Assembly: GCA_029555085.1 (NCBI GenBank)
Contig: JAKPTO010000026.1
Coordinates: forward strand, 37,217-101,216
Length of the DNA: 64,000 nucleotides
DNA from: a bacterium
Lineage (GTDB): Bacteria; Patescibacteriota; Patescibacteriia; UBA1558; S5-K13
Direction of reading: 5' to 3'
Within the stretch, counting starts at the first letter, position 1, and each line of letters begins with the position of its first letter. The notes beneath the pieces were generated by a model. The model saw only the letters and a list, made by a program, of their open reading frames with translations. It had not been told where the DNA came from and did no database searches. Below, in pieces: positions 5,065 through 62,517 of this stretch. The translations under genes were made by a program, and so were the position numbers.

Positions 5065-5091
5065 AATAATGTCCCATTTTTATAAAAAATA

Positions 5092-5589: not shown

Positions 5590-5678
5590 TAAATTTCCAA
5601 ATAAATACTTATATATAAATTATATAATTTTTTCAATAAAAAAACCACCCTAAACTAAGTAGAGTGATTTTTATAAAA

Positions 5679-6341: not shown

Positions 6342-6459
6342 GGTTTCGACTTTCAGCTTTCAATTAGCTAAAAACAAAACTCTAACTTAATTATTATAAT
6401 TATCTCATTATAAAACAAGACAAAATTTATGTCAATAATAAATTGTAAGTTAAAAAATT

Positions 6460-14812: not shown

Positions 14813-17800
14813 TTATTCTTCTATTGTCTCTATTGTGACTTCTGTTTCTGTTATTGTTGTTTCTGTTGTTTCCTCTGCCGAAGTTTCCTGTTCTGTGGTT
14901 GTATCTGTTTGAGTTGTGTCTATTGAGGTTTCCGTGGTTTGATTACCTGATGAGATATCATCCTCTATTGTAGTTTCTGTTGTGTCTTCTATTGGAGTTT
15001 CTTGTTCTGTGGTTGTTTCTGTTTGAGTTGTGTCTATTGAGGTTTCTGTGGTTTGATTACCTGATGAGATATTGTCCTCTGTTGTTGTTTCTGTTGTGTC
15101 TTCTATTGGAGTTTCTTCTATTAAACCCTGCTCTGTTGAAGATGAAATCAATTCTGATGTTCCATCGCTACTAAATATCATTCCCTTGTATGCTCCGAAT
15201 GAATGCCAGTCAAATATCACATCAGTTTCTTGAGTATTTTCTATCTTTATCACAAAACCATTCTTTGTAACTTCGTCTATATAATAACCGCCATTGATTA
15301 ATGCGCGTGGAGAAATCGTTATAACTGGATCATTTCTATATTCATGCTCAAACATGACTGCTGTACTTGTTGCGCCTGTTAAAATCTTTGCTTGACCAAC
15401 CGTATCACGACCTAAATCAACTAATCCCTCAACTTGCAATGCGCCAGACAATACCAAATCTTCTAATGCGTCAAGCGACATTCCAAATTGCGCTCTAATT
15501 TCATTAATTTGTTGCTGTTGTTCTTGTATTGCTGAAACCATTACTGGCGTAAATGATTCATAGTCAATTGATTTGTTTCCACTTTCATCAATATTTAAAA
15601 GTTCTGGCGCAATTTCTTCTACTTGAGTTGTTATAAATCCTAATTTATTAATTTGTGTTTCATTTTCTATCCATACGAAATTTACTGCTTCAATGTCTGT
15701 TAATTTATTAAGCGAAATTATTCCATCTAATTGATCTATTGTTGCATTTTCTACAATTTGTTCTGAAGATGGGACAGAATTATTTAATTGATTTCTTAAA
15801 TTAGTAATTTCATTATTCAATGAATCAAATCTTTGTTCTATGTTATATGAATCTATAATGCTTTGTATTTCTGAAATATTTTCATCTTTTGCTTCTAAGA
15901 CCTTAGTTGTCACCTCTTTTTCAATTTCATTCACTGTTACACTCTTATTGTTTCTTGAAATTAATACATTTATAGTTCCAAAATCTCCACTAAATGATTC
16001 AAGCGCAACTCCGACTGTTGAGTCGCCCTGATTTGCTTTCATTAAATATCCTTGTCTTGATGCACTTGTCAAAGAATCACCCGGATTAATATCTCCATTT
16101 TCATTTGAGACAAATGCTGGAATCTGACCTAAAAGCGCTACTAATTTATAATTTGGATTATTTTTGTATTCTTCTTTTGAATTTCCTATAAATCCAGGCT
16201 TGGTTGAAATAATTCCAATAATATTTGAATCACTTGATGTGGCGCACCTTGATATAGCATTGTTATTTGCAAAGTCAATACATACAACCTCTCCTGATGA
16301 AATATTTGTATTATTAGTATAAAAATATTCTGCATAGTCAGCTGCTGGTGTGTCATAACCAGTATCAGCTAAAACTAAGCCATCGGAGCTAACCGTAAAG
16401 ACATTATCCCCTTCCGAATTCTGCAAAACAAATCCCAATACTTTTTCCTTTCCAAGATTTTTTATCGTGGTTCGACCAATATAATCTACTGAAAAAAGAG
16501 TTTCTTCGTATTCCACCCTACTTTGTATCTCAAATAAATTAGCGGAAGGGTGAGCTGATGTATTTACTACTTTTAACACCGGAACATGCCCCAAGTCACT
16601 AACTATTGTAGCTGATTTAATTAATTCTATAGGTACATCCGCGATTATTTTAGATTGCGATAGTGTTAAAGGGGAAACATTATTGGTTTCATCTCTAAAT
16701 TCTAATGTCCCATATGCATATGAAGAAGAATGTGGTCTTATTGCCCAAGTAGATGTTCCTACGTGAATTTCTTCTGCCCAAAGATCAGTCCATCTATAAT
16801 CTGATGAACCAAGAGTATAGGTTAAATTTGACTCAGGAACAATATCTCGCATAGTTGATGTTCCTGTTACATTGAGTGTTCCAGCACCTGTATTTATTAC
16901 TAAATCTGTTCCGTTCCATAAAATATTTGCATCTTGATCTTCTCCGAGATAGAGAGCAGCATTATCTTCGTCTATATAAACATTACCTGTAGCAAAAGCT
17001 CGAAAATTAGCAAGATCTGCACGTGAATGACCTAACCATATCTTAGACGACGGTTGAGTGGCAAAAAAACTAGAGAGAGTATATATAAGACCATTAACTC
17101 TAAGAGCGCTACCAAAATATGAATGACCTTTTACATCTAAAGTTCCTTCTACATATAAATCATTATCATCAAGTTCAAGGGTACTAACTCCGCTATTTGA
17201 TATTGCATTATATGGTAACGCGCTTACTCCACCTATATTAAATACATTATTATTAGCAAATACTATATGACCACCTGTAGTATTTATTGTTAAATCTCCT
17301 GAAGAATCAGTTCCAAATGTTGTTGAAGTTGCAGAATTGTATCCTAGTGTCAATTGTGGTGAAGTTGAGTTTACTACATGAAGCGCGGATGACGGCGCTG
17401 TAATACCGATACCGACATTACCACCATTAAAATATGATGCACCCCTAGAATGCAGTAAAATAGTCGAGTCATTAGATGAATTTCTCATGGTAAGGGATGT
17501 ATTAGATCCGCTACGCAACAAAACTCCTCCTGAACTAGGCACAATATTTAACTGGCCAGACGCTCTAATTTCCTGATTTCCAGATGATGGGAAAAATGAT
17601 ATAGATCTAGTTTTAGTAGAATCATAAAAATAAACATCTCCAGTAACATCTAGAGTTGCTTGCGGATCATTTGTCCCAATTCCGACCCTTCCTGAATTAT
17701 AATAAATACCATTACCATATGCGTTTGGGGTCCACCGGGATGACACAATTGGCGATCCGTTTATAGAAAATCCGGCTGCATCTACTATTCCAGTTGAAGC

Positions 17801-20356
17801 AGTGATAGTTGCACGACCGCCGACTGATAAGTTATTCGTTAGTGTAGTGGCACCGTTTAAAGTTATAGTATCGTCACTATTTGCATATAAAATTCTTCCC
17901 CAATCACCATCACTGGCTCCATATTTTACAAACGCAGTTCCTCCACCCACGCCATAAGAACCCATTGGTGCGGTATAACCAGCAGCAAGATGTTCATCTG
18001 ATATAACAATATTCATTTCTCCTCCATAACCATCTACAACAAAACTTGCTATTGTATTAACATTACTATCAACTACTGTTAGCGCATACTGTGGTGTTGT
18101 GGTACCGATTCCGACGTTGCCTGATCCGACATTAACTGCTATGTTATTATAATGCATTATATCGTTGTAACCGCTAATATCTACAGCCTCATAAACTACC
18201 ATTGGTGCATCTCCCGCTAAATCATATATACCAAACTCATCGTTGCTAAACATTCCACCATTACCAATATAAAAACCTCCTTTGCTATAATCGCCACTTT
18301 CAAAACTAGCAATCATATCTGTACTTGAAACATGTAAACCGCTCAGAGGATCTGTCGTCCCTATCCCAACATTTCCTGAGTTATAGTAAATATCAGATCC
18401 ATTTGTAATCCACTGAGATGATACAATTGGCGAGCCATTTATAGAAAATCCGGCTGCATCTACTATTCCGGTTGAAGCGGTGATAGTTGCGCGACCGCCG
18501 ACTGATAGATCGCCTATAAACGAAGAAGCGCCTGATTGTAATATTTTTAATACTGTACCACCATAATAATAAGCATTCTCACTAGTATCATACACGGCTA
18601 TATAAGTATCATCACCCTTATTAATTAAACCTATTTCATCAGTTATGGCGCCAGAAACCAATGCTACTGGACCATATAAACCATTAGCAATTATCTCTGA
18701 TCCAAAATCAGCAATTCCCGTTAAAGCAGTAATAGTTACCTTGCCTCCTATTGATATATCTCCGGTAAAATTAGCTCCTGATAAAAGTGCATAAGAAGTT
18801 GAAGCAGCAGTCCACACAGGATCTAATTCTGTAATTAAACTTCCAAGTGGTGAACCATTCCAATAAAGATCTCCACCTAGATTATATAATGTATCTACTG
18901 TTACAGCTGGAGTTGAAGATGCGATATTCAAACCATTATTTGTTACTACTAATCCCATTGCGGTTGTTGTTGCAAACGAAGAACTTCCAGTTACTATTAA
19001 ACTAGCAGATGAATATAAATCTGATGATAAATTTACAGGACCGTCAAAAGTATTTATTCCCGTCCATGTATTATTATCAGATAAAGACACCCCTCCCCCA
19101 TTTTGAACTATCGTAGTTCCACCACCAATAAAATTATATACGCCCCCAGTAAAAGACCCGTCCTCCCCTTTATCTCCTTTGTCTCCTTTTTCGCCAGTAT
19201 CTCCTTTTGGTCCAGCATCTCCCTTGTCTCCTTTTTCACCTTTTACCAAAATTGTTTTTTGGATAACCTGCGTATCACCATTTGCTGTATGATAATTTTG
19301 AATTATTTGGGGTTGAACTTTGTCGGTAGCCCCGAGATAAATATTTTTTATCTCCTGCGTTTCAGCTGCATCTCTTATAAATCGAACAACGCTATCCCTA
19401 AGAACTAAATTTATTGATAAAACTTTATTCGCAAATTTTTTTGATATATTCTCAGAATAATCTCTATATTTATTTAAAGAAACAAGAGAATTAATTATTT
19501 TCTGTAAAAATGTTAGCTTAGATGAAATATTGACAGACACCTCGCTTGCGCCAAGTACTCTATGAGATGGGTTATTTTCTGTATAATAATTATCTTTTTT
19601 ATTTAAAAACGCTCTTGGGTTAAAATATGAAATCCTATCAACAACAGAATGAGCTAATTCTTTATAATTATTTTTATAGCGTTTTAATAAATTAAAATTA
19701 TTAAGTTGTGAATTTCTTAAAAATTTACCAAAATTTGTTAATTTATTTTTTATGTTTGAAAATTGATATTTGTAAGCATTGGAAAATTTCTCAGAAGAAA
19801 GTGATAAAATTCTTTCTACTTTATTTTGATTTTCTCCATAAGTACCGAGAGCAGAAGGAATAAAAAATCTCATTGTCAAAATTAATAAAAAACTTATAGC
19901 TAAAAAATTTGCCAATCCAATTAATTGATTCGGAGAATGTGGTTTTGGGGATCTAAACTTTGAAGATTTTAAATTAGAATATTTTTTAGACTTATCAAAT
20001 TTAAAAAATGTAAAAACTGACAATAAAAAATTTCTAAAAATGTTTACTATATGATAAAAAGTTTTTTTAAATTTTTCTTTATTAAAAAAATGAATTTCTG
20101 CTAAAAGTATGTCTGGTAAATTTGGTTTTCTATTAAGTGAAACATCTTCATACTGAATTTGAAAATTCATCTCACTATTCTTCTCTTCATACTCTTTCAA
20201 GTAGCTTTTTTTCGTAAACCATATTCCATCAATTTTCTCTGCTTTTAATTTTCCCTGCCTCGCGCGAAGAGATAAATATTCTTGTGAATATGAACAATAC
20301 TTTGTCGCCTGTGACAAAGTAATGTATGGTTCTATTTGTTGATTTTGTTCGTCCAT
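14813..20356 (-). CDS. Giant membrane-tethered fibre protein: N-terminal HTH-like domain, TM helix, collagen-like GXY repeats, beta-helix repeat region, C-terminal tail-fibre intramolecular chaperone (peptidase S74) domain, Thr/Glu-rich tandem repeats
   Basis: HTH_17/excisionase-like N-terminus (YITLSQATKYCSYSQEYLSLRARQGKL...IDGIWF). TM helix LIGLANFLAISFLLILTMRFFIP. Collagen-like GEKGDKGDAGPKGDTGEKGDKGDKGEDG. Repeated LSVGGRATITASTGIVDAAGFSINGSPIVSS. S74-like GFITTQVEEIAPELL...IDYESFTPVMVSAIQEQQQQINEIRAQ. Confidence 0.6.
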   Translation of the reverse strand: MDEQNQQIEPYITLSQATKYCSYSQEYLSLRARQGKLKAEKIDGIWFTKKSYLKEYEEKNSEMNFQIQYEDVSLNRKPNLPDILLAEIHFFNKEKFKKTFYHIVNIFRNFLLSVFTFFKFDKSKKYSNLKSSKFRSPKPHSPNQLIGLANFLAISFLLILTMRFFIPSALGTYGENQNKVERILSLSSEKFSNAYKYQFSNIKNKLTNFGKFLRNSQLNNFNLLKRYKNNYKELAHSVVDRISYFNPRAFLNKKDNYYTENNPSHRVLGASEVSVNISSKLTFLQKIINSLVSLNKYRDYSENISKKFANKVLSINLVLRDSVVRFIRDAAETQEIKNIYLGATDKVQPQIIQNYHTANGDTQVIQKTILVKGEKGDKGDAGPKGDTGEKGDKGDKGEDGSFTGGVYNFIGGGTTIVQNGGGVSLSDNNTWTGINTFDGPVNLSSDLYSSASLIVTGSSSFATTTAMGLVVTNNGLNIASSTPAVTVDTLYNLGGDLYWNGSPLGSLITELDPVWTAASTSYALLSGANFTGDISIGGKVTITALTGIADFGSEIIANGLYGPVALVSGAITDEIGLINKGDDTYIAVYDTSENAYYYGGTVLKILQSGASSFIGDLSVGGRATITASTGIVDAAGFSINGSPIVSSQWITNGSDIYYNSGNVGIGTTDPLSGLHVSSTDMIASFESGDYSKGGFYIGNGGMFSNDEFGIYDLAGDAPMVVYEAVDISGYNDIMHYNNIAVNVGSGNVGIGTTTPQYALTVVDSNVNTIASFVVDGYGGEMNIVISDEHLAAGYTAPMGSYGVGGGTAFVKYGASDGDWGRILYANSDDTITLNGATTLTNNLSVGGRATITASTGIVDAAGFSINGSPIVSSRWTPNAYGNGIYYNSGRVGIGTNDPQATLDVTGDVYFYDSTKTRSISFFPSSGNQEIRASGQLNIVPSSGGVLLRSGSNTSLTMRNSSNDSTILLHSRGASYFNGGNVGIGITAPSSALHVVNSTSPQLTLGYNSATSTTFGTDSSGDLTINTTGGHIVFANNNVFNIGGVSALPYNAISNSGVSTLELDDNDLYVEGTLDVKGHSYFGSALRVNGLIYTLSSFFATQPSSKIWLGHSRADLANFRAFATGNVYIDEDNAALYLGEDQDANILWNGTDLVINTGAGTLNVTGTSTMRDIVPESNLTYTLGSSDYRWTDLWAEEIHVGTSTWAIRPHSSSYAYGTLEFRDETNNVSPLTLSQSKIIADVPIELIKSATIVSDLGHVPVLKVVNTSAHPSANLFEIQSRVEYEETLFSVDYIGRTTIKNLGKEKVLGFVLQNSEGDNVFTVSSDGLVLADTGYDTPAADYAEYFYTNNTNISSGEVVCIDFANNNAISRCATSSDSNIIGIISTKPGFIGNSKEEYKNNPNYKLVALLGQIPAFVSNENGDINPGDSLTSASRQGYLMKANQGDSTVGVALESFSGDFGTINVLISRNNKSVTVNEIEKEVTTKVLEAKDENISEIQSIIDSYNIEQRFDSLNNEITNLRNQLNNSVPSSEQIVENATIDQLDGIISLNKLTDIEAVNFVWIENETQINKLGFITTQVEEIAPELLNIDESGNKSIDYESFTPVMVSAIQEQQQQINEIRAQFGMSLDALEDLVLSGALQVEGLVDLGRDTVGQAKILTGATSTAVMFEHEYRNDPVITISPRALINGGYYIDEVTKNGFVIKIENTQETDVIFDWHSFGAYKGMIFSSDGTSELISSSTEQGLIEETPIEDTTETTTEDNISSGNQTTETSIDTTQTETTTEQETPIEDTTETTIEDDISSGNQTTETSIDTTQTDTTTEQETSAEETTETTITETEVTIETIEE
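14880..15125. repeat. Intragenic tandem repeat, about 117 bp x 2, encoding a Thr/Glu-rich C-terminal repeat
   Basis: Near-identical DNA unit (ttctgtggttgt.tctgtttgagttgtgtctattgaggttt...) appears twice. It corresponds to the protein repeat ETPIEDTTETT.EDNISSGNQTTETSIDTTQT.TTTEQ. Confidence 0.7.
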
Positions 20357-29719: not shown

Positions 29720-30016
29720 TTATATGCTCCCCCCTATCGCATAAACGAACATTTCACTTTGCTTCTTAACAACATATCGCATAAGCACAAATCCAAATCC
29801 ACTAGTAATGGTAATGGTCATATTAAGAAATTTCTTATTGTCAAAAATAAGAAAAGAAAATATTCCCCAAAATATTCCTAATTTAAAAATAAAAGAGAGG
29901 AAACGCGGAAACATTTTCATGAAAAATTGATAAATATTTAGAACAATCAATACTGGTTTTTCTATGGGCAGATATTTAAATATCTCTAAAAAATTATCTT
30001 TTTCAACTTGATTCAT
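29720..30016 (-). CDS. Small membrane protein, hypothetical
   Basis: 98 aa with two or three hydrophobic helices. Confidence 0.3.
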   Translation of the reverse strand: MNQVEKDNFLEIFKYLPIEKPVLIVLNIYQFFMKMFPRFLSFIFKLGIFWGIFSFLIFDNKKFLNMTITITSGFGFVLMRYVVKKQSEMFVYAIGGSI

Positions 30017-30107: not shown

Positions 30108-30148
30108 GTGGGGAAAATAAAAGCTCTCTGAAAATTTTTCAGAGAGCT
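30108..30148 (-). terminator. Rho-independent terminator (13-bp stem agctctctgaaaa/ttttcagagagct)
   Basis: Perfect palindrome immediately downstream of the M23-peptidase gene stop, followed on the minus strand by a T-rich tract. Confidence 0.6.
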
Positions 30149-30154
30149 CATGAA

Positions 30155-32746
30155 TTATTTACTAAAAACCAGTTTCTTGTCAAAAGAAAATCCGTTTACA
30201 TTTACCCGACAAATATAAACACCGCTTGAGCAAATTTTTCCTGAATCATCTTTTGAATCCCAGTTAATAGTTGCTGATTTGGATTTTGTGGGGACAAACT
30301 TTTTTACAAGTTGTCCTTTGATGTTATAAATCGAAATTTGAACTTCAGATGGTTCTTTTGTGTCTTCTATATCAAACATTAAGCTTACTGTGGAGTTAAA
30401 TGGATTTGGAAATATTTCAAATTTCTTTTTTAATAAATTCACTGTTTGACTTGGTGCGAGTATAAGTGACACATCATCAATCCAAACAGGAACATCTTGT
30501 TCTCCCAAATTCCATGAAATGCGTGCAATTCCAGAACTTGTGGCAGTAAAGCTCATTGTATAATTTTGCCAATCAGTTCCAGTGCTCACAACTTGCCATA
30601 GGCCAAAATTATTCCAGGGAGAATTTTCATTATATAACTCTACCTGGATTTGTCTTTGTGAGGTAGATTTCGCCCAGAAAGACAAAGTATAATTTTGACC
30701 CGATACAATGTTTAAATTCTGGTACAATTGAACCTCGAAGTGCAAACCATTTTGATTGGGATCAATAAATATTGAGTTATTCCCTGAATGGTAAATAGAA
30801 TTATCAATATAATAACTCGCTGTGGAATTGAGATCGCCAACCTCAAATGGTGCAAAATTTCCTGTTTCAAAACCAGGATTTATTATTAAATTATCTCCTT
30901 CTGTTTCCATATCAGATATTTTTTCAAAAACAACATTATCAAAATATTTACAACCAGCTGACTCGCCAATCATAAAATTCAAACGCGCTAATTGATCAGT
31001 TGTATTTGCTATAAAAATATACTGATATTTTTTCCAAGTTGAAGTGAGATTAATCTCTTTCCATAGACCATAATTATTCCATGGATCATTGTTGTTTTGT
31101 ATGCAAAATTTAATTCCCGATGCAGGATTGGATTTTGCCCAAAAAGAAACATTATATGACTCGCCTGATTCAATTTCAACAAGTTGCATAAGTTCTTCTT
31201 CGTAAAATAATCCGGAATCACCAATATTGATTTCTGCTTTAAAGTTTCCATCAACGCAATCACCGGATGTTATATCGAAACTTGCGCTATTTCTACTGTC
31301 ATTTAAAATCCAATAATTACAAATTCCAGAATCAAATCCACCGTCTTCGAAGTCACCACCCTGATAATCAACCATTCCACCACCAGCAAAATATTGAATA
31401 TTTTCTCCGGATTGAAATGAATTAACATCGCTATCGGAAACTTCTAAAACATTAGCAAAATTAAACCCATAGGTATTGAAGGTTGATTCGTCTATAATGA
31501 GACGACGCAATCCATTTTCTATATAATAACAAGCTGGACCTGGACCAGAAATTAATTTTCCATCCATGATTTTTTCATAGCTTACAAATGGCGCAATCTG
31601 ATAATAATTTAAAACATTTTGAGTAACTACTATATTAAAATTTGAATGATAATAGTTAATCATATAAACATTGTCAGAAAGCAATCTCAGAAGAATCTTT
31701 TGTCCAGTGTATGAAGAAGAAACTTCAATCCCTCGTTTAATAACATATCGTTCGTTCATGTTATTTACATTTTGCAATACTGTTCCGTATGGATAATCGC
31801 TTGAAGATGTAAGTTCAGATCCTTCCGCAAATTGAGATAAATATGAACTTGTTGTTGGAATCCAAACATCCGCAGAGTATCCTAATTGTTGCCAATTATT
31901 TACCCTTCGCTTCACAATTGTCGTAGAATTGTTTGACTGATAATCAAATACCCATCTCTGAGAATTCTCATCATAAACACAAGTTCCAACTTTTGGACTA
32001 ATATCAGGACCAATTGAAAATGAATTGAATTCTTCTTGACTAATTTCAACTGCATCAGACCAGTCAAATCCCCAAGTATAAAAAGGTGTCTCACTAGTAA
32101 ATCGTTGCATTTGCCTGTCACGAATCCAATAATAATTTGGAGTATTAGTTACATGAACCAATAAATCATCTGGTAGAATTCTTGGTTGTGAAACAACAAT
32201 GCCTGGGAGTGATGGCGGGTTTGATACGAAATAATGTTTATCTGGATTACAACCATTATTATATTGTTGTGTGTTGTTACTATACCAACCATAGGGATCA
32301 ATTGGTTCATTATTATAGTAAACACCAAAGTGAAGGTGAGGGTTGGTTGAATAACCAGTGTCACCCACCTTTCCTATAAATTGTCCTTGGTAAACAAATT
32401 CTCCGACAGAAACAGTTGCAGTATGGTAAAGCATGTGCGCGTATATTGTTTTGTAACCATTTCCATGGTCTATTTTCACATAATTACCATAATCCGTTCC
32501 TGTTCCATCTGGAATATCTCTTTGCACCGCAATAACCTGTCCACCATAAGCAGAAAGAATTCTTGTTCCCTCTACTGCGGAATAATCAATTCCGTAATTA
32601 TAGTTATAACTATAACTAGGTGGATATTGCCAACCAGATGAAATTATAAAATTTCCTTCAATGGGGAGTGTGAATATATGATCCACACCGAACAAATAAC
32701 CACAACACATTGTGATTATTACTAGAATTGTCATGAGAGTTTTCAT
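30155..32746 (-). CDS. Secreted peptidase M23 (LytM-type) with carbohydrate-binding-module-like domains and a T9SS-type C-terminal sorting domain
   Basis: Signal peptide. M23 motifs: HxxxD region and HLHFGVYY (HxH). CBM4/9-like segments. C-terminal roughly 85 aa IFPNPFNSTVSLMF...ISIYNIKGQLV...INWDSKDDSGKICSSGVYICRV...KKLVFSK matches the Por_Secre_tail pattern. Confidence 0.65.
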   Translation of the reverse strand: MKTLMTILVIITMCCGYLFGVDHIFTLPIEGNFIISSGWQYPPSYSYNYNYGIDYSAVEGTRILSAYGGQVIAVQRDIPDGTGTDYGNYVKIDHGNGYKTIYAHMLYHTATVSVGEFVYQGQFIGKVGDTGYSTNPHLHFGVYYNNEPIDPYGWYSNNTQQYNNGCNPDKHYFVSNPPSLPGIVVSQPRILPDDLLVHVTNTPNYYWIRDRQMQRFTSETPFYTWGFDWSDAVEISQEEFNSFSIGPDISPKVGTCVYDENSQRWVFDYQSNNSTTIVKRRVNNWQQLGYSADVWIPTTSSYLSQFAEGSELTSSSDYPYGTVLQNVNNMNERYVIKRGIEVSSSYTGQKILLRLLSDNVYMINYYHSNFNIVVTQNVLNYYQIAPFVSYEKIMDGKLISGPGPACYYIENGLRRLIIDESTFNTYGFNFANVLEVSDSDVNSFQSGENIQYFAGGGMVDYQGGDFEDGGFDSGICNYWILNDSRNSASFDITSGDCVDGNFKAEINIGDSGLFYEEELMQLVEIESGESYNVSFWAKSNPASGIKFCIQNNNDPWNNYGLWKEINLTSTWKKYQYIFIANTTDQLARLNFMIGESAGCKYFDNVVFEKISDMETEGDNLIINPGFETGNFAPFEVGDLNSTASYYIDNSIYHSGNNSIFIDPNQNGLHFEVQLYQNLNIVSGQNYTLSFWAKSTSQRQIQVELYNENSPWNNFGLWQVVSTGTDWQNYTMSFTATSSGIARISWNLGEQDVPVWIDDVSLILAPSQTVNLLKKKFEIFPNPFNSTVSLMFDIEDTKEPSEVQISIYNIKGQLVKKFVPTKSKSATINWDSKDDSGKICSSGVYICRVNVNGFSFDKKLVFSK

Positions 32747-32934: not shown

Positions 32935-33480
32935 CTACTTATTTATTAAAAAATCTTTAAATATACCCAAACTACCCACTCTAAATAAACCTATATTTTC
33001 TACTGTTTCGCAACCAACCATCACTGGGGCATATTCGTCTCTACATGTGCTAGCTCTACAATTATCACCTGCATATTTATACTCTACAAACATATTTTGC
33101 TTTATTAGTTGCTCTGTTAATGCAAACGGGAAAACACTACTAACAGAATAAATACCTCTTGGAACCTCTAATCTGTAACCTTTTTTATTTCTATATTTAG
33201 AATTAATTACTTGATTAGGTGTGCAATAATAATTATTTGTTTCTATATTTTTCGCGCAAACCAAAGATCCATCTGGAACAATTTCTGATGGATAGCTTAA
33301 TTCTCCCTCAATTGCCCCCATACAATTTTCTGATTGTATTTTTGTTGCTTCTCTTTCATCTGAAATACTCTGTGTATTGTTTATAATATTTTCTTGATTT
33401 TTACTATCATAAATTACAATATATATAACAAGTGATATAAATAGTATTATTGAAATAATTATTAATATTTTTTTCCACAT
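32935..33480 (-). CDS. Secreted cysteine-rich small protein, hypothetical
   Basis: Signal/anchor helix, then 8 Cys residues in about 130 aa. Confidence 0.35.
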   Translation of the reverse strand: MWKKILIIISIILFISLVIYIVIYDSKNQENIINNTQSISDEREATKIQSENCMGAIEGELSYPSEIVPDGSLVCAKNIETNNYYCTPNQVINSKYRNKKGYRLEVPRGIYSVSSVFPFALTEQLIKQNMFVEYKYAGDNCRASTCRDEYAPVMVGCETVENIGLFRVGSLGIFKDFLINK

Positions 33481-33575: not shown

Positions 33576-33608
33576 AAAAAAAGGCGTCGTATTACTACGA
33601 CGCCTTTT
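33576..33608 (-). terminator. Rho-independent terminator (stem ggcgtcgta/tacgacgcc), bidirectional
   Basis: GC-rich 9-bp stem flanked by an A7 run and a T4 run, 27 bp downstream of the 1707-aa gene stop. Confidence 0.65.
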
Positions 33609-33634: not shown

Positions 33635-36600
33635 TTATTTTTTATATAAAGTGGAAACAAATCTTTGCATTCTGTCATTCAATACATCTAAAGCAATTCT
33701 TGTACTTTCTGGTGCGTTTTTTGGTATGCTCTTTAATGTGAGTTCCCAAAATTTTATCTCAAAATTATTTAACTTACTACTACCTGTTCTTTCCAGCTTT
33801 ATATCGCTTAATAATTTAAATGCTTTATCGTGTACAATGTCTTTATTAGCACTCTCCGTAATTATTCTATATAATTCAGTACCTCGTTCTCGGCTATAAA
33901 AAAATGTTCCAACTGAACTAACATCTGATGTCTGTTTAATAATGGAACCATTTTCATCAAATACTTGTTTAAGTGTTCCGCTTCTTCCCGCCTCCTTAAA
34001 AGTAACGAGCTTTGTATAATCATCGAGCCATTTCTCTGTTATTGTTCCTGTATTTGTTTTTATAATTTCTATATTTGGCTCGGAAATCAATTCTTGAAAA
34101 TTATTCTCTGTAATTTGCTCTAAGCCGGGACTTTGTGGATCAAGATCTGCATAATATTCCCCATGGTCTTTTTGAATTTCCAACACCCGATTATTACCAA
34201 CATTCGTTTCAAATTTAACTGGAATATTGTCTTCAACATCTTTCAATGCCTCTTCCAACTCAGAAAATGTATTAACTCTTTTAACTCCTAGTATCTCTGT
34301 TTGATTTTGAGCTATAGGCACACGATCTAATATATCTTCGACAGGTGTCCGTCCTGATATACCTTTGGTAGGCACATGATCTGGCTCAATAGTCAAATTT
34401 TGAACTGAGGATACTTGGTCTGATATATCTTCTATATTTGACTCAGAAATCAATTCTTGAAAATTATTCTCTGTAATTTGCTCTAAACCAGGGAGATTAG
34501 GATTAAAGTCTGTGTAATATTCTCCATTGTCCTCTATAATCCGTACAACATTACCACCAATTTCTACATCAGCCGAAGCACCTGCCTCTTTAAACTGAAA
34601 TACTTCTTTCAAATCAGAAAAATCCCTAACCACTGGAACCTCTGATGTTTCTATAGGTACATTAGTCAATGTATCTGGGGTGACTTCTATACTTTCTGTA
34701 GGTACATGATCTAACATATCTTCAGTGGGTACATGATCTGGTTTAATAACTGGGATTTCTGTATTACCATTATTAAACTCATCTTGCAACCTCGCTATTT
34801 GAAAATTTAACTCCTCTCCAGTATTTTGCTGTTGTGAAAGTAATTCTCGAGTTGCATTTAGTTCCTCAGATATCTTCGCTTGTATATTGGATGGAATATT
34901 TGGATCATCTAGCATTTCTTCTAATCTGGTAATTGATAATTTTGACTTTATTATATCATCATTTAACTCAAAATATTTACTTTGTAGCTCTTCTATTTGC
35001 TCAGGATAATTTGACTTAACTATATCTTCTACGGGTAGCACTTCTCTTACATTTGTTGGTCTGACAATTTCTGAAACATTAGGACCATGTTTGGGCTTAA
35101 TGACGCCCATTACATTATCTACATAATGTTTGTAAAAACTTTCATAAGACTTGGGTTTGACAAAGGCAAAAACCTCGTTAGTTTCTGGATCAACGACAAC
35201 TCTTGCTCCCGGCGCAACAACATTTGCATCAAAATTTTTAAGAATCAATGGTTCGCCATTAGGTCCAGAAGTAACAAGTGTCATTTTTGAACCACGAGGC
35301 ATGCTTATACCCAAAGTTTCAGAAACACTAGAGCCCTTAGCTACTGGAACGCCTTGATCTGCCAACTCTTGAATACGTTGAGGGTTCAAACCCTTAATAT
35401 CTTGAAAATTAGATACATCTGATTTTTTTGGAGAAAAACTTTGTGATGCCTCATTTATATCATCCGCTCGACTTGTTGAGATAACCTGATCTTTTTTACC
35501 AAAAACAGAGTTCTTCAAATTCTCAAAAGACTTTCCTAATCTCTCCATTCTTGAAACTATATCAGCATAACTTACAAAATTATCTTTCATGTTTTCCAAT
35601 ACATTACCCTGAGTAAATGTTTTGGTAAAACATTGTACCATGTTATCCACACTTGCACCAGATGTTTGTATTCCTGATAAAGCTTGCGTTCCCATACCAA
35701 GAGCCATTAATAATTCCCCCCAAGCTCTCATCATGGTAGTTTTTTTATCAAAACCTTTTAATTTTCTAACATCACTATGTTTTTTTAATTTATCATTTTC
35801 TACATAAAAACTTGATTCATATCGTTTTCCAGATAATCCATAATATGTTTCTAAAAACATTGTTTTAAATGCATCTCCAAGATATTGATGTGCTTTCATT
35901 TTTTCGCCAACCTTATTCCAGGAATATTCCTTTTGATATTTCAATGCTGATTTATCTAATTTTCCACCAAATGCAAATATTCCATACATAGCACCTCGAA
36001 GTCCAGCCGCACCTATCCCGCCACCAAAAACCATAGCCGTATTAAGTGCATCTTTTACAAGTATACTTCCATTTACTGTTCCTTGTATATAATCTTGCAA
36101 AATATAATCTATTTTTTTTGACCTTTGTTTTCTTAAATCATTTTTTGATTCCAAATTCGTAAGTAGAACTTTGTTTAATCTATTTCTCATTGTCATCTGA
36201 TCATGATCAGAAATAATATACAATAACTTTTCTTTATCTGTTAATGAACCTTCGTTAAACTTTTTTTCTATTTCTTGTCTTTTTTCTTTTGGTAAATCAT
36301 AATAATTCTGAGATCTGGCATTCTTTATCATTTCATTATATTGCATTGCTTTTTCTTTTACATCATCTACAGAAATTTTTTCATTTTTTATAAAATTTTC
36401 TCTAATTTTATTATTCTCCATTGAAAGAGTTTTTATTTTACGCTCTAATTCTTCTCTTTCTGTTTCATCTTTTGTGTTTTTATATATCTCTACATATCTA
36501 GATATTGCAGCAACTCTTCTTTTGTAATTATCATCTTGGTAAAGCTTCTGAAATTTTTCCTTATTAGAAGAAATCAACTCTGCTAAATCGCTTGTTTTCT

Positions 36601-38758
36601 TTTCTGCCTCAACCCTATCTTTCTTTGTTTCACTTTTTTGATCAAAATATTTATACACATCTGTTCTCTTGCCAAGAGCAAAATTAATTTTTCCTCCACT
36701 TATTTTATCAAGTCCATGCGCAAGTCCAGCGCCAATCCAATCACCAATGGCTTTAACACCAAACATTGAACCGATAATATTATATATTCCCTTACCTGTT
36801 GCTGCGCATAAGGCCCTCTTTTCTTCTTTTTCTTCTGGTGTTTTTGGTTTCTTAAAAATCAAATCAAAAGTTTTCTTAACCCTATCCTTAAATTTAACTT
36901 TTATCTGTTCTTCTTTTAACTCTTCATTGATAATATGTTCTTCCGGCGTATTAGATTGAATTTCTTTTTCTGATTCAAAATTATTGTAAGTAGATGTCCA
37001 TTTTATTTCTTGTCCCCATTCTGGACTGGTATGGGTAGATGTCCATTTTGCTTCCTGTCTCTCTCCTTGACTCGTATTAGTTTCCCATTGTTGTTCTTGA
37101 TTAGTATTAGATATTGTCTCTGGTTTTATTTCTTTTATTCCAAGTACATTGCTTATATATGTATTTGTATTTTCAAGAAGACTTGGTGCTATTTTTGTCA
37201 CAAAATTTACAATAAAAGACTCATTACCCTCCCTACCCTCATCTTCTACTCTATCCTTAGCTTCTAAAAATTTTCTTACCTCAATAATCTGATTATCGCT
37301 TAGTCTACTCAACTTGTACTTTAAAATATCAACTCCGGTATTTTCTAATTCTAAATGTTTATTAAAAAATTTTTCCTCTGTTTTCGGCAAATCGTCTTCA
37401 AAGACTTGTTTTTCTTTAATAACCTCCTCTTCTGATTTTTCAAAATTCTCTGATTTTGAAGTCTCTTCTTTTTCTGATTTAATCTTTTCTTCTGAATTTC
37501 CTAACAACTCTTTAACTTTATCTCTTAAACCGTATGCTCTAGTAACGAAATTAATATGATAGCTTTCGTGTCTCACTTGATCAATTATCTGCTTCAATTC
37601 CTCTGGACTATATTTTTCTTTGGTACCATCTATTGTCCCAATTTCTTCTATGGCAGAAAATAATTCCTCAAAATTTTTAGCATTGCTAATTTTTGCTTTT
37701 TGATTTTCTAGTAACTCTACAACCTTATCTCTTAAACCGTATGTTCTAGTAACATAAGTATTGCGAAGATCTCCATTCCTTACTTGGTTAATGATCTGCT
37801 TCAATTCCTCTGGACTATATTTTTCTTTGGTACCATCTATTGTCCCAATTTCTTCTATGGCAGAAAATAATTCCTCAAAATTTTTAGCATTGCTAATTTT
37901 TGCTTTCCTATCTTCTTCTGTTTCTATTGTATTTTTTTTATTTTTCCCCTCAATTTCTTTTTTAGATTCACTTTCTCTCATCATTTCAATGAGTTTTTTT
38001 GCATGCATTTTAGCCCATTGAATTTGTCCTTCATTATTTTCATAATCTAAACCTGCTTCTGGGTTAGGATGATTATCTTTTTCCCTATTTTCTATATCAT
38101 GTTGTTTCCAACTCATAAGAATTTTATACGCAATAGCTGTTTCTAAATCATTTGTAGTATCTCTATACATGTCATAATGTTTGTAATAATCATTAAAAAT
38201 GCCTTTATAATCTATACCCGTTTCCATATCTGGATTTTCAAAAAAATTCTTATACACTTTTTCAACTTCAGATTCCATATATTTATAATCTTCTGGATTG
38301 TCTGGTAATTCTGTTTTTATAACTCTCTCTGGAACCTGATCTAAAACATTGAGATCTTTTTCTGATTCAAATTTTTCATCTATTTTTTCTTGTCCATCTT
38401 CGGGGATTTCTTTCGCATACTCGTCTGATGCTGATATAATTTCTTTTGCCCTTTTTATTCTCTTATTAATCTCAGGGACTAATTTTCTTAAATCTTCTAA
38501 ATAATTAAAAAAAAGAGAACGATCTTCATCAAATGTTTCTTGGTCACTCGATATAAGTATATATTGATCTGCACTAAATGATATATCCGACCTAATTTCT
38601 TCGAGTAATTCTTCACCCCTATTTAATATTTTCTCTAAAGCTTGTTTCTTAAATCTTATGAATCCATCTGGGTTATTATTATCTATAAATTCTCTGTATT
38701 GCTCATTCTTATCAACTAAATTTTTTAAATTCTCTGTAGGTTGTTTTATTTTATCCAT
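33635..38758 (-). CDS. Giant repeat-containing protein (1707 aa): coiled-coil N-terminal region, Gly-rich amphipathic/hydrophobic central segments, repeat-rich C-terminus. Function unknown.
   Basis: No signal peptide. A roughly 70-aa module (KAKISNAKNFEELFSAIEEIGTIDGTKEKYSPEELKQII.QVR) is duplicated. Gly-zipper-like segments GIGAAGLRGAMYGIFAFGG. C-terminal repeats PGLEQITENNFQELISE.NIE appear twice. Confidence 0.5.
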   Translation of the reverse strand: MDKIKQPTENLKNLVDKNEQYREFIDNNNPDGFIRFKKQALEKILNRGEELLEEIRSDISFSADQYILISSDQETFDEDRSLFFNYLEDLRKLVPEINKRIKRAKEIISASDEYAKEIPEDGQEKIDEKFESEKDLNVLDQVPERVIKTELPDNPEDYKYMESEVEKVYKNFFENPDMETGIDYKGIFNDYYKHYDMYRDTTNDLETAIAYKILMSWKQHDIENREKDNHPNPEAGLDYENNEGQIQWAKMHAKKLIEMMRESESKKEIEGKNKKNTIETEEDRKAKISNAKNFEELFSAIEEIGTIDGTKEKYSPEELKQIINQVRNGDLRNTYVTRTYGLRDKVVELLENQKAKISNAKNFEELFSAIEEIGTIDGTKEKYSPEELKQIIDQVRHESYHINFVTRAYGLRDKVKELLGNSEEKIKSEKEETSKSENFEKSEEEVIKEKQVFEDDLPKTEEKFFNKHLELENTGVDILKYKLSRLSDNQIIEVRKFLEAKDRVEDEGREGNESFIVNFVTKIAPSLLENTNTYISNVLGIKEIKPETISNTNQEQQWETNTSQGERQEAKWTSTHTSPEWGQEIKWTSTYNNFESEKEIQSNTPEEHIINEELKEEQIKVKFKDRVKKTFDLIFKKPKTPEEKEEKRALCAATGKGIYNIIGSMFGVKAIGDWIGAGLAHGLDKISGGKINFALGKRTDVYKYFDQKSETKKDRVEAEKKTSDLAELISSNKEKFQKLYQDDNYKRRVAAISRYVEIYKNTKDETEREELERKIKTLSMENNKIRENFIKNEKISVDDVKEKAMQYNEMIKNARSQNYYDLPKEKRQEIEKKFNEGSLTDKEKLLYIISDHDQMTMRNRLNKVLLTNLESKNDLRKQRSKKIDYILQDYIQGTVNGSILVKDALNTAMVFGGGIGAAGLRGAMYGIFAFGGKLDKSALKYQKEYSWNKVGEKMKAHQYLGDAFKTMFLETYYGLSGKRYESSFYVENDKLKKHSDVRKLKGFDKKTTMMRAWGELLMALGMGTQALSGIQTSGASVDNMVQCFTKTFTQGNVLENMKDNFVSYADIVSRMERLGKSFENLKNSVFGKKDQVISTSRADDINEASQSFSPKKSDVSNFQDIKGLNPQRIQELADQGVPVAKGSSVSETLGISMPRGSKMTLVTSGPNGEPLILKNFDANVVAPGARVVVDPETNEVFAFVKPKSYESFYKHYVDNVMGVIKPKHGPNVSEIVRPTNVREVLPVEDIVKSNYPEQIEELQSKYFELNDDIIKSKLSITRLEEMLDDPNIPSNIQAKISEELNATRELLSQQQNTGEELNFQIARLQDEFNNGNTEIPVIKPDHVPTEDMLDHVPTESIEVTPDTLTNVPIETSEVPVVRDFSDLKEVFQFKEAGASADVEIGGNVVRIIEDNGEYYTDFNPNLPGLEQITENNFQELISESNIEDISDQVSSVQNLTIEPDHVPTKGISGRTPVEDILDRVPIAQNQTEILGVKRVNTFSELEEALKDVEDNIPVKFETNVGNNRVLEIQKDHGEYYADLDPQSPGLEQITENNFQELISEPNIEIIKTNTGTITEKWLDDYTKLVTFKEAGRSGTLKQVFDENGSIIKQTSDVSSVGTFFYSRERGTELYRIITESANKDIVHDKAFKLLSDIKLERTGSSKLNNFEIKFWELTLKSIPKNAPESTRIALDVLNDRMQRFVSTLYKK
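37520..37950. repeat. Intragenic tandem duplication, unit about 213 bp x 2, with a stretch of about 130 bp that is 100% identical
   Basis: The sequence ttatctgcttcaattcctctggactatatttttctttggtaccatctattgtcccaatttcttctatggcagaaaataattcctcaaaatttttagcattgctaatttttgcttt occurs at about 37578 and again at about 37790. Confidence 0.75.
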
Positions 38759-47996: not shown

Positions 47997-48614
47997 TTAC
48001 TTCAAAATTGTACCTGTTTTTATATACCAGATATAAATATCTAACTCTCCCTGACTCATATCCAATTTTTTGCATATTTTATGCATTTTTTTCTCTATTT
48101 CAATATATCTCTTTGGTGTTAATGTTTTATATTCAGCTATTATTCCGTTATCAATCAAACTACTAATAATATGCCTATCTAAAATAGCATAATCAAAAAA
48201 ACCAACATTTCTTAAAAAATGCGACGATTCCTTCATCCCAAGACCTTTTATATTTTTCAAAAGCCACATTCTTTTATCATTTTCTTCTAATAAAATATCT
48301 TTGATGTTTTTATACTTTCTTGCCAAAACAATACGATTCGCGCGTTGAGGCCAAAATCTATGACCTGATTTTTTCAAAAATCTTGCTAATTTTTCTTCAT
48401 TCCAATTTAAAAAACCATTCGGAGTTAATTTTTTTTGAATTTCAATTGACTCTTTTGCTTTCCAATTTGAAGTTAATAAACAATAACAAAGTTCAAAAAA
48501 CCATTCATTGTTTGATTTTTTGTTTAAAATTAAAAAATCTTTTAATCTTCTATCAATTTTATTTTTGATTTTTGATTTTCTTATTTCTTGAATTTTGTTT
48601 ATTAATTTTTTCAT
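47997..48614 (-). CDS. ogg: N-glycosylase/DNA lyase, archaeal-type 8-oxoguanine glycosylase (Ogg2 family, HhH-GPD)
   Basis: The stretch KSNNEWFFELCYCLLTSNW...GHRFWPQRANRIVLARKYKNIKDIL...NIKGLGMKESSHFLRNVGFFDYAILDRHI...YIWYIKTGTILK gives a near-collinear match to the MJ0724-type Ogg. The probable start is the internal Met (MKKLINKIQEI); the ORF-track start at 48686 would overlap nth by 128 bp. Confidence 0.65.
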   Translation of the reverse strand: MKKLINKIQEIRKSKIKNKIDRRLKDFLILNKKSNNEWFFELCYCLLTSNWKAKESIEIQKKLTPNGFLNWNEEKLARFLKKSGHRFWPQRANRIVLARKYKNIKDILLEENDKRMWLLKNIKGLGMKESSHFLRNVGFFDYAILDRHIISSLIDNGIIAEYKTLTPKRYIEIEKKMHKICKKLDMSQGELDIYIWYIKTGTILK

Positions 48615-49269
48615 AATGTAAACAATAATTTTTAATTTTACAAATATTACATTTTGGACCAATTGGCCTACAAATATTTTGACCAAACAATACTAATACA
48701 AAATTTATTTTTTTCCAGTACAACTTATCTAAATTTTTTCTTAAAAACATTTCGGTTTCATACGGAGTCCTTGTGTTTAAATATCCAATTCTATTTAATA
48801 TTCTATGAACATGCGTATCCACACAAATTGCTGGTTTTTTTAAAACTGTAGAAATATATAAATTTGCTGTTTTTCTCCCAATTCCTGGAAGTTTTATAAG
48901 TTCATCGATAGTTTCCGGAATTTTAGAATTGAAATCCTTATTTAAAACAAAACATAATTTTTTTAAATTTTTTGCTTTTGTTTTATAAAAACCAACTGGA
49001 TAAATCAATTTTTGTATTTGTAGATTTGTTAATTTTTGCAAATCTTTACAGTTGCTTACTTTTTCAAATAATCTTAATGATGACTCAAGAGTTGTTTTGT
49101 CTTTTGTTCGTGACGATAAAATTATTGAAATTAAAATCTGAAAATTGTTAAATTTTTTAGAATACAAAAAATCAACAGCAGGAAGTTCAAATTCACTAAC
49201 CTGCTGTGACAATAAATCAAGTATTTTTTCTATTTTTACTTTGATTTCCATAATCCATGAAGATTGCAA
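48559..49269 (-). CDS. nth: Endonuclease III
   Basis: HhH-GPD region (LPGIGRKTANLY...VDTHVHRI) and C-terminal 4Fe-4S cluster C-x6-C-x2-C-x5-C (CRPIGPKCNICKIKNYC). Confidence 0.8.
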   Translation of the reverse strand: MQSSWIMEIKVKIEKILDLLSQQVSEFELPAVDFLYSKKFNNFQILISIILSSRTKDKTTLESSLRLFEKVSNCKDLQKLTNLQIQKLIYPVGFYKTKAKNLKKLCFVLNKDFNSKIPETIDELIKLPGIGRKTANLYISTVLKKPAICVDTHVHRILNRIGYLNTRTPYETEMFLRKNLDKLYWKKINFVLVLFGQNICRPIGPKCNICKIKNYCLHYEKINKQNSRNKKIKNQK

Positions 49270-50339: not shown

Positions 50340-51554
50340 TTATTGATAATATTTATTTCTATTATAGTTAAATTCAAAAGATTTATTAAAATCAGATACT
50401 AATGATGGAATATTTGAAACCATAATTGACTCATCGTTTCTAAAAAATCCCCCAGAACTCCAATTATTTGTTCCAAAAAGAGCTATTTTATCATCAAAAA
50501 TCATTAGATGATGGTGTAAAAAAGAATTTAAATTTTGTTCATTAAATATTTGTTTTAATTCTTTATTTCTATTTTCATCAGTCAAAATTTCTAAATTATC
50601 TAAATGATTTTGCTTTTTCTTTTTTATCATAAAATTAAATACGGAACCATCTACTGAAAAATTATAATCATCTGTTAAAATTTTTACACTAATCTTTTTT
50701 GATGCTAATAATAAATCTTCTGCAATATCTCTATCTGTCATAAGCCAAATCATGGATTTTATGTTGTCCTTTGAATTCTCAATCAGATTCAACATTCTAT
50801 CCTTGATACCAGTATTTATTCTTTGTGGAGTAAACCAAATTTCTAAAAATCCTTCTGGATATTTTATAAGAGCAGCGAATGGATTATATTCTTTTGATAA
50901 TTTATCTCTTCCGCGTAAACCAGAAAATATTCTATCAAATTCCTCTCCATATATTTCAATAATTTCTGGCCTGTCAGTTTCTAAAATAAAACTCGGATCA
51001 TATTTATCTTGAATATAAGTAAAATTATAAGAACTAAAGAGTAATTTCTGGGTCTCCTCGCCTCTATCAATTATTATAAATTTATGATGCATGTATTCTG
51101 ATTTTTGAGTATTAATGTTCCTAGACAAAATATCTTTTCTTGTAATATTATCTCGCTTTTCTGAAAACAATCTATTATTTATATCTCTATGCACATCACT
51201 AAAAACTAATTTTATATTCACTCCTCTGTCTGATGCTTTATAAATTGCATCTCTTATCCTTTCGTCGTTCATAGAATAAATAGCCACTTCAATGGTTTTT
51301 TGTGCAGAATTTATAGAATCAATAACAATTTTTGACAAAATGTTTTGTCCAAATTCATCATTAAAATGTAAACTCCCTGAAAATGGTTCTGTGATTTCTA
51401 TGATTTTCGCAGGCCTAAATTCTACTATTCTTCTCTTCGAAAAAGATGTAAAAAATAAGTATATAAAAATTCCCATTGTAATTAATAAAAGAATTGGAAT
51501 TGCCCAAAAAATAAATGTCTTATGTGATTTTTCTAATTTCATCACCCAGCTCAT
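50340..51554 (-). CDS. Membrane-anchored phospholipase D superfamily protein (cardiolipin-synthase-like), two HKD-type motifs
   Basis: N-terminal TM helix. Motif 1 is HHKFIIIDRGEE...SSYN (HxKxxxxD...GSxN-like). Motif 2 is HHHLMIFDDKIALFGTNN, which is Cls-like but has His where the Lys is expected. Confidence 0.6.
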   Translation of the reverse strand: MSWVMKLEKSHKTFIFWAIPILLLITMGIFIYLFFTSFSKRRIVEFRPAKIIEITEPFSGSLHFNDEFGQNILSKIVIDSINSAQKTIEVAIYSMNDERIRDAIYKASDRGVNIKLVFSDVHRDINNRLFSEKRDNITRKDILSRNINTQKSEYMHHKFIIIDRGEETQKLLFSSYNFTYIQDKYDPSFILETDRPEIIEIYGEEFDRIFSGLRGRDKLSKEYNPFAALIKYPEGFLEIWFTPQRINTGIKDRMLNLIENSKDNIKSMIWLMTDRDIAEDLLLASKKISVKILTDDYNFSVDGSVFNFMIKKKKQNHLDNLEILTDENRNKELKQIFNEQNLNSFLHHHLMIFDDKIALFGTNNWSSGGFFRNDESIMVSNIPSLVSDFNKSFEFNYNRNKYYQ

Positions 51555-58131: not shown

Positions 58132-58157
58132 TTAATTATATTAGTTTTATATTTATA

Positions 58158-59570: not shown

Positions 59571-59574
59571 ATTT

Positions 59575-60237: not shown

Positions 60238-60265
60238 TTTTTTATCAAATATTGAATATTAAATT

Positions 60266-62513: not shown

Positions 62514-62517
62514 AATA

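Follow-up and report, generated by a model that had tools for sequence, protein, structure and literature searches.

The 64,000-nucleotide stretch of contig JAKPTO010000026.1 analysed here (referred to as the window) carries on its minus strand a gene for a secreted M23 peptidase of 863 amino acids (aa), which terminates in a C-terminal domain (CTD) homologous to the type A sorting domain found on type IX secretion system (T9SS) cargo proteins. The gene belongs to a clade of Patescibacteria, also known as the Candidate Phyla Radiation (CPR), related to Komeilibacteria. Although the domain call itself is routine, the new observation is that a canonical T9SS signal domain is kept by a lineage which, as far as is currently known, has no means of using it in that capacity. 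We consider it slightly better than an even chance that this module was laterally acquired long ago, has been kept under selection, and would act, independently of any T9SS, as a β-sandwich that binds or retains the hydrolase on a surface.

The segment comprising the tail, positions 30155–30420 (minus strand), corresponds to the stop codon and the ~87 codons that precede it in the 863-aa open reading frame (ORF), with the in-frame part at 30158–30418. Its translation contains the peptide quoted in an earlier note on this DNA (IFPNPFNSTVSLMFDI...ISIYNIKGQLVKKF...INWDSKDDSGKICSSGVYICRVNVNGFSFDKKLVFSK), in which it was described as fitting the pattern of Por_Secre_tail/T9SS type A CTDs. This assignment is borne out by profile scores, fold, motifs, and terminal position. 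When the whole protein is scanned, PF18962 (Por_Secre_tail) matches aa 778–860 with 34.7 bits (cut-off 27), covering positions 1–74 of the 75 in the profile, and TIGR04183 scores 37.4 bits (cut-off 23). For the tail alone, the corresponding values are 41.8 bits (E 1.4e-10) and 44.7 bits (E 1e-11). The hidden Markov model (HMM) check with these two models that the note had proposed thus ends in favour of its assignment, and both score above the generic FlgD immunoglobulin (Ig) model PF13860 (FlgD_ig), which is barely over its threshold (27.8 bits versus a cut-off of 27).

When the tail was modelled with AlphaFold2 (AF2) from 17 orthologous tails, the prediction reached a predicted local distance difference test score (pLDDT) of 87.8, with seven strands arranged in an Ig-like β-sandwich. 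Among PDB entries, Foldseek ranks the PorU CTD first (6za2, TMq 0.76), with further matches to FlgD (3osv), the CTD of mirolase (8qb1), PorZ (5m11), and the CTDs of substrates held in translocon complexes of Flavobacterium johnsoniae (8gl8, 8glk, 8gl6). When the sequence profile of the tail is compared with PDB chains, FlgD (3osv) comes first (E 1.5e-4), followed by 8glj_D and the CTDs of PorZ and PorU. FlgD itself can be ruled out as the identity of the domain, since only the Ig-like part is present, without the N-terminal FlgD domain, and flagellar genes are absent from the window. The NCBIfam FlgD models score 12.7–19.3 bits for the whole protein and 13.3–24.7 bits for the tail alone, against cut-offs of 230–383.

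Twelve positions of the tail are invariant in the 22 orthologues (the window protein included): Pro780, Asn781, Pro782, Phe783, Ile806, Asn808, Gly811, Trp829, Gly842, Tyr844, Lys858, and Lys863. In an alignment with CTDs from the Fibrobacterota–Chlorobiota–Bacteroidota (FCB) group, they coincide with the type A motifs B, D, and E. The tail lies at the extreme C terminus, and all 22 proteins end with K-x-x-x-x-K. In Bacteroidota, the residues of these motifs, among them motif D (GxY), are exposed on the surface and make contacts to PorV and PorM; for the motif E lysines, a contact with PorV is implicated, and secretion requires them (PMC10202324). The match of the tail to type A CTDs is far beyond chance, and the tail is genuinely homologous to the type A sorting domains of T9SS cargo.

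The clade to which the gene belongs can be recognised from several sides. The named relatives of LigA encoded in the window are found solely in the Patescibacteria group, Komeilibacteria (58%), Buchananbacteria, and Parcubacteria. The exact hydrolase sequence is already public (P0001, 'MAG TPA: carbohydrate binding domain-containing protein [bacterium]') and is present on 21 contigs, which reach 192 kb in length. In addition, there are 21 full-length orthologues with 45–80% identity, and the PF18962 tail is present in 21 of 21. A scan of GTDB species genomes yielded nine orthologous loci, the informative titles of which are 'Patescibacteria group bacterium' and 'Candidatus Komeilibacteria bacterium S5_K13'. 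In all nine, the genes follow the order LigA-GatA-DsbA-Lgt-(giant ORF)-(181 aa)-[hydrolase gene]-(S11 DD-carboxypeptidase)-MacB-MacB-ABC-HlyD-L20-IF3-SmpB, and orthologues of LigA and of the CTD protein are located on the same contigs of 953, 496, and 306 kb. Identity across the clade amounts to 67–82% for LigA and 45–74% for the hydrolase, and the GC content is even across the region. Since the gene order is conserved in nine related genomes, the gene is no contaminant; it has been inherited vertically since before the clade diversified and was not transferred recently. The CPR-like gene context that the earlier note had perceived is therefore genuine.

The same note had considered a contaminating contig. 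In that case, an FCB gene would have been mis-assembled or mis-binned into a CPR bin. What could be cited for such an origin is that several metagenome-assembled genomes (MAGs) bearing orthologues are labelled 'uncultured Gammaproteobacteria'; these mislabelled MAGs, however, have the CPR synteny too. With housekeeping flanks kept in the same order in nine independent assemblies of different projects, on contigs of up to 953 kb, with the exact protein recurring on its 21 contigs, and with uniform GC content across the region, contamination or chimerism is refuted and retains practically no probability. The loci in question, L001 (CAYLQO01), L004 (CAZWKI01), L005 (CAZXCJ01), L007 (CAYRHT01), L008 (CAZXFD01), and L009 (CAZAOE01), are titled 'uncultured Gammaproteobacteria bacterium' and come from binchicken/SRP co-assemblies; the labels appear to be wrong, because these MAGs show the Patescibacterial gene order together with the orthologue.

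Among the 46 window ORFs of at least 120 aa, Pfam searches found none of SprA, PorV, PorU, GldK-N, PorP, BamA, LptD, TolC, or lipopolysaccharide (LPS) genes. The matches obtained in the window are to housekeeping genes, type IV pilus pseudopilins and a prepilin peptidase, T4SS_pilin, a TraG P-loop protein, Lgt, DsbA-like proteins, and a MacAB-type exporter. A six-frame search with the family HMM and a broader FCB+CPR CTD HMM, extending over ~362 kb in all when other loci are included, found no second CTD-bearing ORF in the window and the nine orthologous loci (~245 kb). T9SS genes have been reported to be absent outside the FCB phyla (PMC11285876), and Patescibacteria have been proposed to lack an outer membrane, with a type IV secretion system (T4SS) of the monoderm type (PMC12102498). 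A lack of T9SS throughout the genomes of this clade is presumed from the literature, the scan described here covering the window ORFs of at least 120 aa. The diderm host lineage that the earlier note had allowed for is thus unsupported. In line with this, it is very improbable that the protein is ordinary T9SS cargo of an organism that truly has a T9SS and an outer membrane. While no sequence feature expected of a competent type A signal is missing from the tail, the window and the literature provide no machinery to go with it, the orthologue-bearing contigs of 953 kb and 496 kb suit small CPR genomes, and a single CTD-bearing ORF is present in ~245 kb of clade DNA.

Near the end of the window, the region 56794–63962 (minus strand) encodes RadA, a T4SS_pilin-domain protein (58158–59570), a DsbA-like protein, several ORFs assigned to no family, and a TraG/VirB4-type P-loop protein (63114–63962, minus strand) that runs towards the window end. 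It resembles the T4SS cluster of monoderm type that has been described in Patescibacteria (PMC12102498).

Mean pairwise identity among the orthologues is 44% in the CTD, compared with 52–61% in the other folded domains, 16% in the adjacent linker, and 30% in the signal peptide. Since the identity of the CTD is well above that of the linker and of the signal peptide, purifying selection acts on the tail. The linker between the second carbohydrate-binding module (CBM) and the CTD is hypervariable, and for this reason no cleavage motif can be argued ahead of the CTD. An inert relic, that is, a tail that arrived with a laterally acquired CBM-CBM-CTD cassette and persists without a function of its own, would be in keeping with the CTD being the least conserved folded domain, and related Patescibacterial M23-CBM proteins (P0376) do without the tail. 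Nevertheless, we regard a relic as rather unlikely, because the tail is intact in 22 of 22 orthologues, with 12 invariant columns and an identity far above the 16% of the linkers, and no truncated or frameshifted copies were seen other than fragments at contig ends.

A profile of the tail detects more than 7,600 proteins, of which the best named ones belong to Cloacimonadota, Ignavibacteriaceae, Calditrichaeota, and the 'FCB group' (~100–108 bits); for comparison, the members of the family itself score 95–120 bits with a closely related HMM of the 22 tails. On HMM match columns, CTD identity is 44% between CPR sequences, 41% between CPR and FCB sequences, and 48% between FCB sequences. Searches with the whole-family profile covered 1.84 billion cluster representatives. 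Many proteins end with the arrangement CBM-CBM-CTD behind unrelated N termini, the named ones being from KSB1 and Ignavibacteriaceae. In P0376 (MFA5075888.1, Patescibacteria group), with the architecture M23-CBM-CBM, the chain ends directly past the second CBM and has no tail. P0502 (MAG11490.1, Parcubacteria group) consists of M23 and middle repeats, with no CTD detected. P0037, from Kuenenbacteria, has the architecture M23-fn3-CBM96-CTD and the terminus KKMTLIK; its tail is 43% identical to FCB tails and 32% identical to those of the CPR hydrolase family. Another M23...CTD protein, P0378 (L015), lies in a CPR-like genomic context, and the contexts of P0381, P0402, P0443, and P0461 were left unassigned and are not obviously CPR-like.

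These comparisons favour a tail that would have been acquired laterally from FCB-type cargo, more than once, onto CPR-type wall hydrolases. Lateral acquisition, proposed in the earlier note for a cargo gene, is thereby retained in a modified form: the acquired piece was probably a C-terminal module, possibly together with the CBM pair, rather than an entire cargo gene, and its acquisition must date far back, as it took place before the clade diverged. A similar graft seems to have taken place independently in Kuenenbacteria. The tail can be regarded as an optional, exchangeable module, because P0376 ends before it, none was detected in P0502, and the tail of P0037 is closer to FCB tails. The premise of the note that T9SS cargo domains are diagnostic of diderm FCB-type lineages proves too strong, as terminal CTDs occur on M23 proteins of this clade, of Kuenenbacteria, and of a third locus with a CPR-like context; it is weakened further by the homologous, internal FlgD-Ig-like arrays in cultured Firmicutes.

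As a separate observation, the M23...CTD protein P0381 (L013, positions 5012–8422; JGI 3300045950, contig Ga0484001_0010426), in which the M23 domain is very close to that of the family (136 bits), adjoins an integrase, an ankyrin-repeat protein, and a phage tail 'Collar' protein. Judging from these neighbours, mobile or phage-like elements seem to carry M23-CTD hydrolases as well.

Taken as a mechanism, the reading that we favour would run as follows. The protein would be a modular peptidoglycan endopeptidase, exported by the Sec pathway across a single membrane. Its tail, possibly with the CBM pair, would have been taken from an FCB-type T9SS cargo gene and grafted onto a CPR-type M23 hydrolase before the clade diversified. 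Once exported by Sec, the protein would face no outer membrane, and PorV, PorU, and SprA would be missing as readers of the tail; since Patescibacteria are thought to lack both an outer membrane and T9SS genes, the tail could not serve as an outer-membrane translocation signal in this cell. Instead, it would attach the hydrolase to a surface or keep it there, be it the envelope of the producer or that of a host, and it might also stabilise the neighbouring CBM. Several points weigh against this reading. The lysines of motif E are kept, although a purely structural role does not obviously need them, and this could point to a specific partner. The absence of T9SS was checked in this 64-kb window only (ORFs of at least 120 aa). 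The direction and number of transfers are deduced from similarity over 85 residues and from sparse source names, and the similarity to Cloacimonadota may be inflated by a low-GC amino-acid composition common to both.

A rival explanation is host-directed mimicry. Here, the tail would have kept its surface for binding PorV/T9SS, so that the hydrolase of a CPR epibiont would dock on PorV or the attachment complex of a T9SS-bearing FCB host, or would be captured at its surface, and would deliver M23 and the CBMs to the host envelope. Motifs B, D, and E and both terminal lysines are invariant although the orthologues are only ~45% identical overall, these are the residues that are surface-exposed and contact PorV and PorM in Bacteroidota (PMC10202324), and the CPR tails are as near to FCB tails as to each other. 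According to work cited in PMC12102498, those Patescibacteria that have been studied live as obligate epibionts, and one of them cannot grow epibiotically without its peptidase and lysozyme genes. The topology is awkward, however, since PorV normally takes CTDs leaving the translocon, and the host peptidoglycan lies beneath the outer membrane; moreover, the first zinc-ligand His of M23 is replaced by Asn in the window copy. We place little weight on mimicry. We can also speculate that the tail is a working recognition device in a T9SS-free monoderm epibiont, which either docks on the PorV or attachment complex of an FCB host or is read by a Patescibacterial surface-attachment pathway. This would explain why the motifs contacting PorV and PorM, as well as the terminal lysines, are invariant in a lineage without T9SS, but it appears to us a fairly slim prospect.

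The remainder of the protein agrees with the description of the cargo in the earlier note as a secreted M23 peptidase/CBM protein; the coordinates of its parts are collected in Table 1. By inspection, the signal region consists of Lys2, a hydrophobic stretch of ~17 residues, and a cleavage region of small residues, as found in Sec-type signals, and the AF2 model has a helix with low pLDDT at aa 2–20. Residues Asp22 and His23, just past the predicted cleavage site, are invariant in the 22 orthologues. Lipoprotein anchoring was ruled out: the Cys residues in the signal region have no preceding lipobox and are missing from most orthologues. In the full-length AF2 model, the predicted template modelling score (pTM) is low (0.39), and the relative arrangement of the domains was therefore not interpreted.

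In the whole-protein Pfam scan, PF01551 (Peptidase_M23) matches aa 49–151 with 93 bits. Residues Asp54, His104, His137, and His139 are invariant in the 22 orthologues, and both the HxH motif and the catalytic His are present. The first zinc-ligand His of the HxxxD motif is replaced by Asn (N50-Y-G-I-D54; window positions 32597–32599), so that this motif is incomplete; the substitution is visible in the alignments to Csd3 (4rny), TagE (5j1l), and 3slu. Asn50 is common to the window protein and its two closest orthologues (P0002 and P0003), whereas the other 19 have His. The activity of the window copy is uncertain because of this replacement, and catalysis may be weakened or altered.

The middle domain is predicted by AF2 with pLDDT of 80–90 and shows a repeated pattern of secondary structure. 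Elsewhere, this repeat builds long arrays, some of them in proteins whose catalytic domain is Amidase_2 or M23. Proteins with this repeat score 18.6–39.3 bits with PF05108 (EccB) when whole proteins are considered (cut-off 27), with no single stretch passing. Because the arrays accompany Amidase_2 and M23 domains, and in view of the EccB-type scores, the repeat is presumed to be of a cell-wall-binding type. PF02018 (CBM_4_9) scores 87 bits over two stretches of the whole protein. Both CBM modules have the jelly-roll fold, with Foldseek matches to CBM22, CBM4, and CBM16 structures.

Table 1. Coordinates of the hydrolase gene, its domains, and adjoining elements in the window.
Feature	Positions	Strand	Description and basis
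Whole gene	30155..32746	minus	863-aa ORF: secreted M23 peptidase, wall-binding repeats (presumed), two CBM4_9 modules, type A CTD
Sec-type signal peptide, aa 1–21 (MKTLMTILVIITMCCGYLFGV), without lipobox	32684..32746	minus	Predicted; sequence inspection
M23 (LytM-type) metallopeptidase domain, aa 25–156	32279..32674	minus	PF01551, 93 bits; structure alignments
Middle domain, aa 190–445	31412..32179	minus	~4 β-β-β-α repeats, presumed cell-wall-binding type; AF2
CBM4/9-type module 1, aa 478–612	30911..31315	minus	PF02018; Foldseek
CBM4/9-type module 2, aa 631–765	30452..30856	minus	PF02018, best stretch 619–738; fold matches
Type A T9SS-like CTD, aa 777–863	30158..30418	minus	PF18962, TIGR04183, AF2, Foldseek, motifs
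Terminator-like hairpin	30121..30149	minus	13-bp stem followed by T-rich tail, 6 bases past the stop codon
181-aa membrane-anchored Cys-rich ORF, upstream of the hydrolase gene	32935..33480	minus	Without Pfam match
Upstream terminator-like hairpin	33579-33608		13-bp stem

The 181-aa ORF and the hydrolase gene probably form a two-gene, co-transcribed unit, since both are located between terminator-like hairpins. A homologue of this ORF lies directly upstream of the hydrolase orthologue in six of the nine loci (L001–L004, L008, and L009), with none in L005 and L007; its product, which has an N-terminal membrane anchor and a Cys-rich ectodomain, may be a partner, an inhibitor, or an immunity protein. 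On the other side, between the hydrolase gene and that of the S11 carboxypeptidase, a hydrophobic ORF of 98 aa (29720–30016, minus strand) was also considered. It is probably no real gene, because none of the nine related loci contains a homologue.

Several other features of the window may be mentioned. Two giant ORFs are without a Pfam family, at 14813–20356 (minus strand, 1847 aa) and 33635–38758 (minus strand, 1707 aa). The latter contains a near-identical internal duplication ('KISNAKNFEELFSAIEEIGTIDGTKEKYSPEELKQII...'), and it is syntenic in related genomes yet only 29–45% identical over partial alignments. The ORFs of two DNA glycosylases (Ogg-HhH, 47997–48686, and HhH-GPD, 48559–49269, minus strand) overlap by 128 nucleotides when counted from their first TTG starts, and the true starts probably lie further downstream. 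The region 50340–54427 (minus strand), a candidate island for defence against phages in this CPR genome, encodes a reverse transcriptase (RT; 53210–54427; PADLOC RT, nearest to the UG26/UG17 types of defence-associated reverse transcriptases), an ABC-like ATPase (51520–53235), and a phospholipase D (PLD)/DrmC-like nuclease (50340–51554).

Automated labels of the domain in this group already exist: the NCBI name of P0121 is 'T9SS type A sorting domain-containing protein [Patescibacteria group bacterium]', and JGI names the domains of P0017. In the literature searches made, no paper came up in which CTDs in CPR are remarked on or accounted for. It is customary to take type A CTDs as markers of T9SS cargo; here a canonical one is vertically inherited, and under selection, in Patescibacteria. 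In metagenome bins, a CTD match alone should accordingly not be taken to imply a T9SS or a diderm envelope. The question thereby posed is what reads a T9SS signal in a cell without T9SS. Should a host surface be involved, the tail would provide a handle on the largely unknown recognition of hosts by CPR epibionts and a hint at hosts from the FCB group. Should nothing specific read it, it would be an example of secretion-signal domains being reused as ordinary Ig-like modules once they have been transferred laterally.

The type A CTDs of FCB T9SS cargo are one group with which the CPR tail can be compared; among them, structures are known for PorU, PorZ, and RgpB of Porphyromonas gingivalis, mirolase of Tannerella forsythia, and substrates of F. 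johnsoniae. By sequence, the 'FlgD-like' CTDs found in Cloacimonadota, Ignavibacteria, Calditrichota, and KSB1 come closest to the CPR tail. The CPR tail resembles FCB CTDs in its HMM membership, in its seven-strand Ig-like sandwich, and in its position at the extreme C terminus of a signal-peptide-bearing, multidomain hydrolase with CBMs. The motifs YPNPF, IYN-x-x-G, W-x-G-x-D, SGxY, and K-x-x-x-x-K-COOH are common to both. Unlike FCB cargo, it is encoded in a Patescibacterial genome, and genes for T9SS and an outer membrane are unseen in the window and unexpected from the literature. Without a T9SS, cleavage by PorU, attachment to A-LPS (anionic LPS), and shuttling by PorV would not be possible in the producing cell.

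The N-terminal half of the protein, consisting of M23 and the wall-binding repeats, is of the type found in Patescibacteria and Parcubacteria relatives and not in the FCB matches. Similarly to the window protein, P0376, P0502, and P0037 start with an N-terminal M23 domain followed by wall-binding repeats and/or CBMs, and they are likewise secreted, modular CPR hydrolases. The same principle, a catalytic M23 domain combined with non-catalytic targeting modules, is found in LytM/lysostaphin-type M23 enzymes (for example, lysostaphin with SH3b), with which the window protein shares the HxH motif, the catalytic His, and the Asp ligand. It differs from lysostaphin in its targeting modules, which are EccB-like repeats, CBM4/9, and the CTD, and in the Asn that takes the place of the HxxxD His in the window copy and its two closest relatives.

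A further comparison is with the FlgD Ig-like arrays (PF13860) of Firmicutes, which belong to the same superfamily and are detected by the CTD HMM of the CPR family itself. They occur in Acetivibrio cellulolyticus (WP_010245240.1), in Tumebacillus (WP_201631541.1 and WP_323372919.1), and in an S8 peptidase from a Clostridia MAG (MCX8128805.1), under the database name 'FlgD immunoglobulin-like domain containing protein'. The presence of the domain in monoderm, T9SS-free Firmicutes shows that the fold works without T9SS. These arrays, along with the passing PF13860 score and with FlgD as the top PDB sequence match, are also what could be adduced for the tail being a generic FlgD-type Ig-like domain, as in monoderm surface proteins, with nothing specific to T9SS. 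Such an explanation is nonetheless unlikely, given that Por_Secre_tail and TIGR04183 outscore FlgD_ig. The Firmicutes copies are internal, arranged in 8–14 tandem repeats, carry PDPF in place of YPNPF, and are without the last strand that bears K-x-x-x-x-K, whereas the CPR domain is single and ends at the last residue of the protein. Moreover, the Firmicutes copies are 27% identical to the CPR tails, compared with 41% for the terminal CTDs of FCB proteins. These differences place the CPR tail in the terminal, signal-type class of the superfamily, and not in the class of generic repeats.

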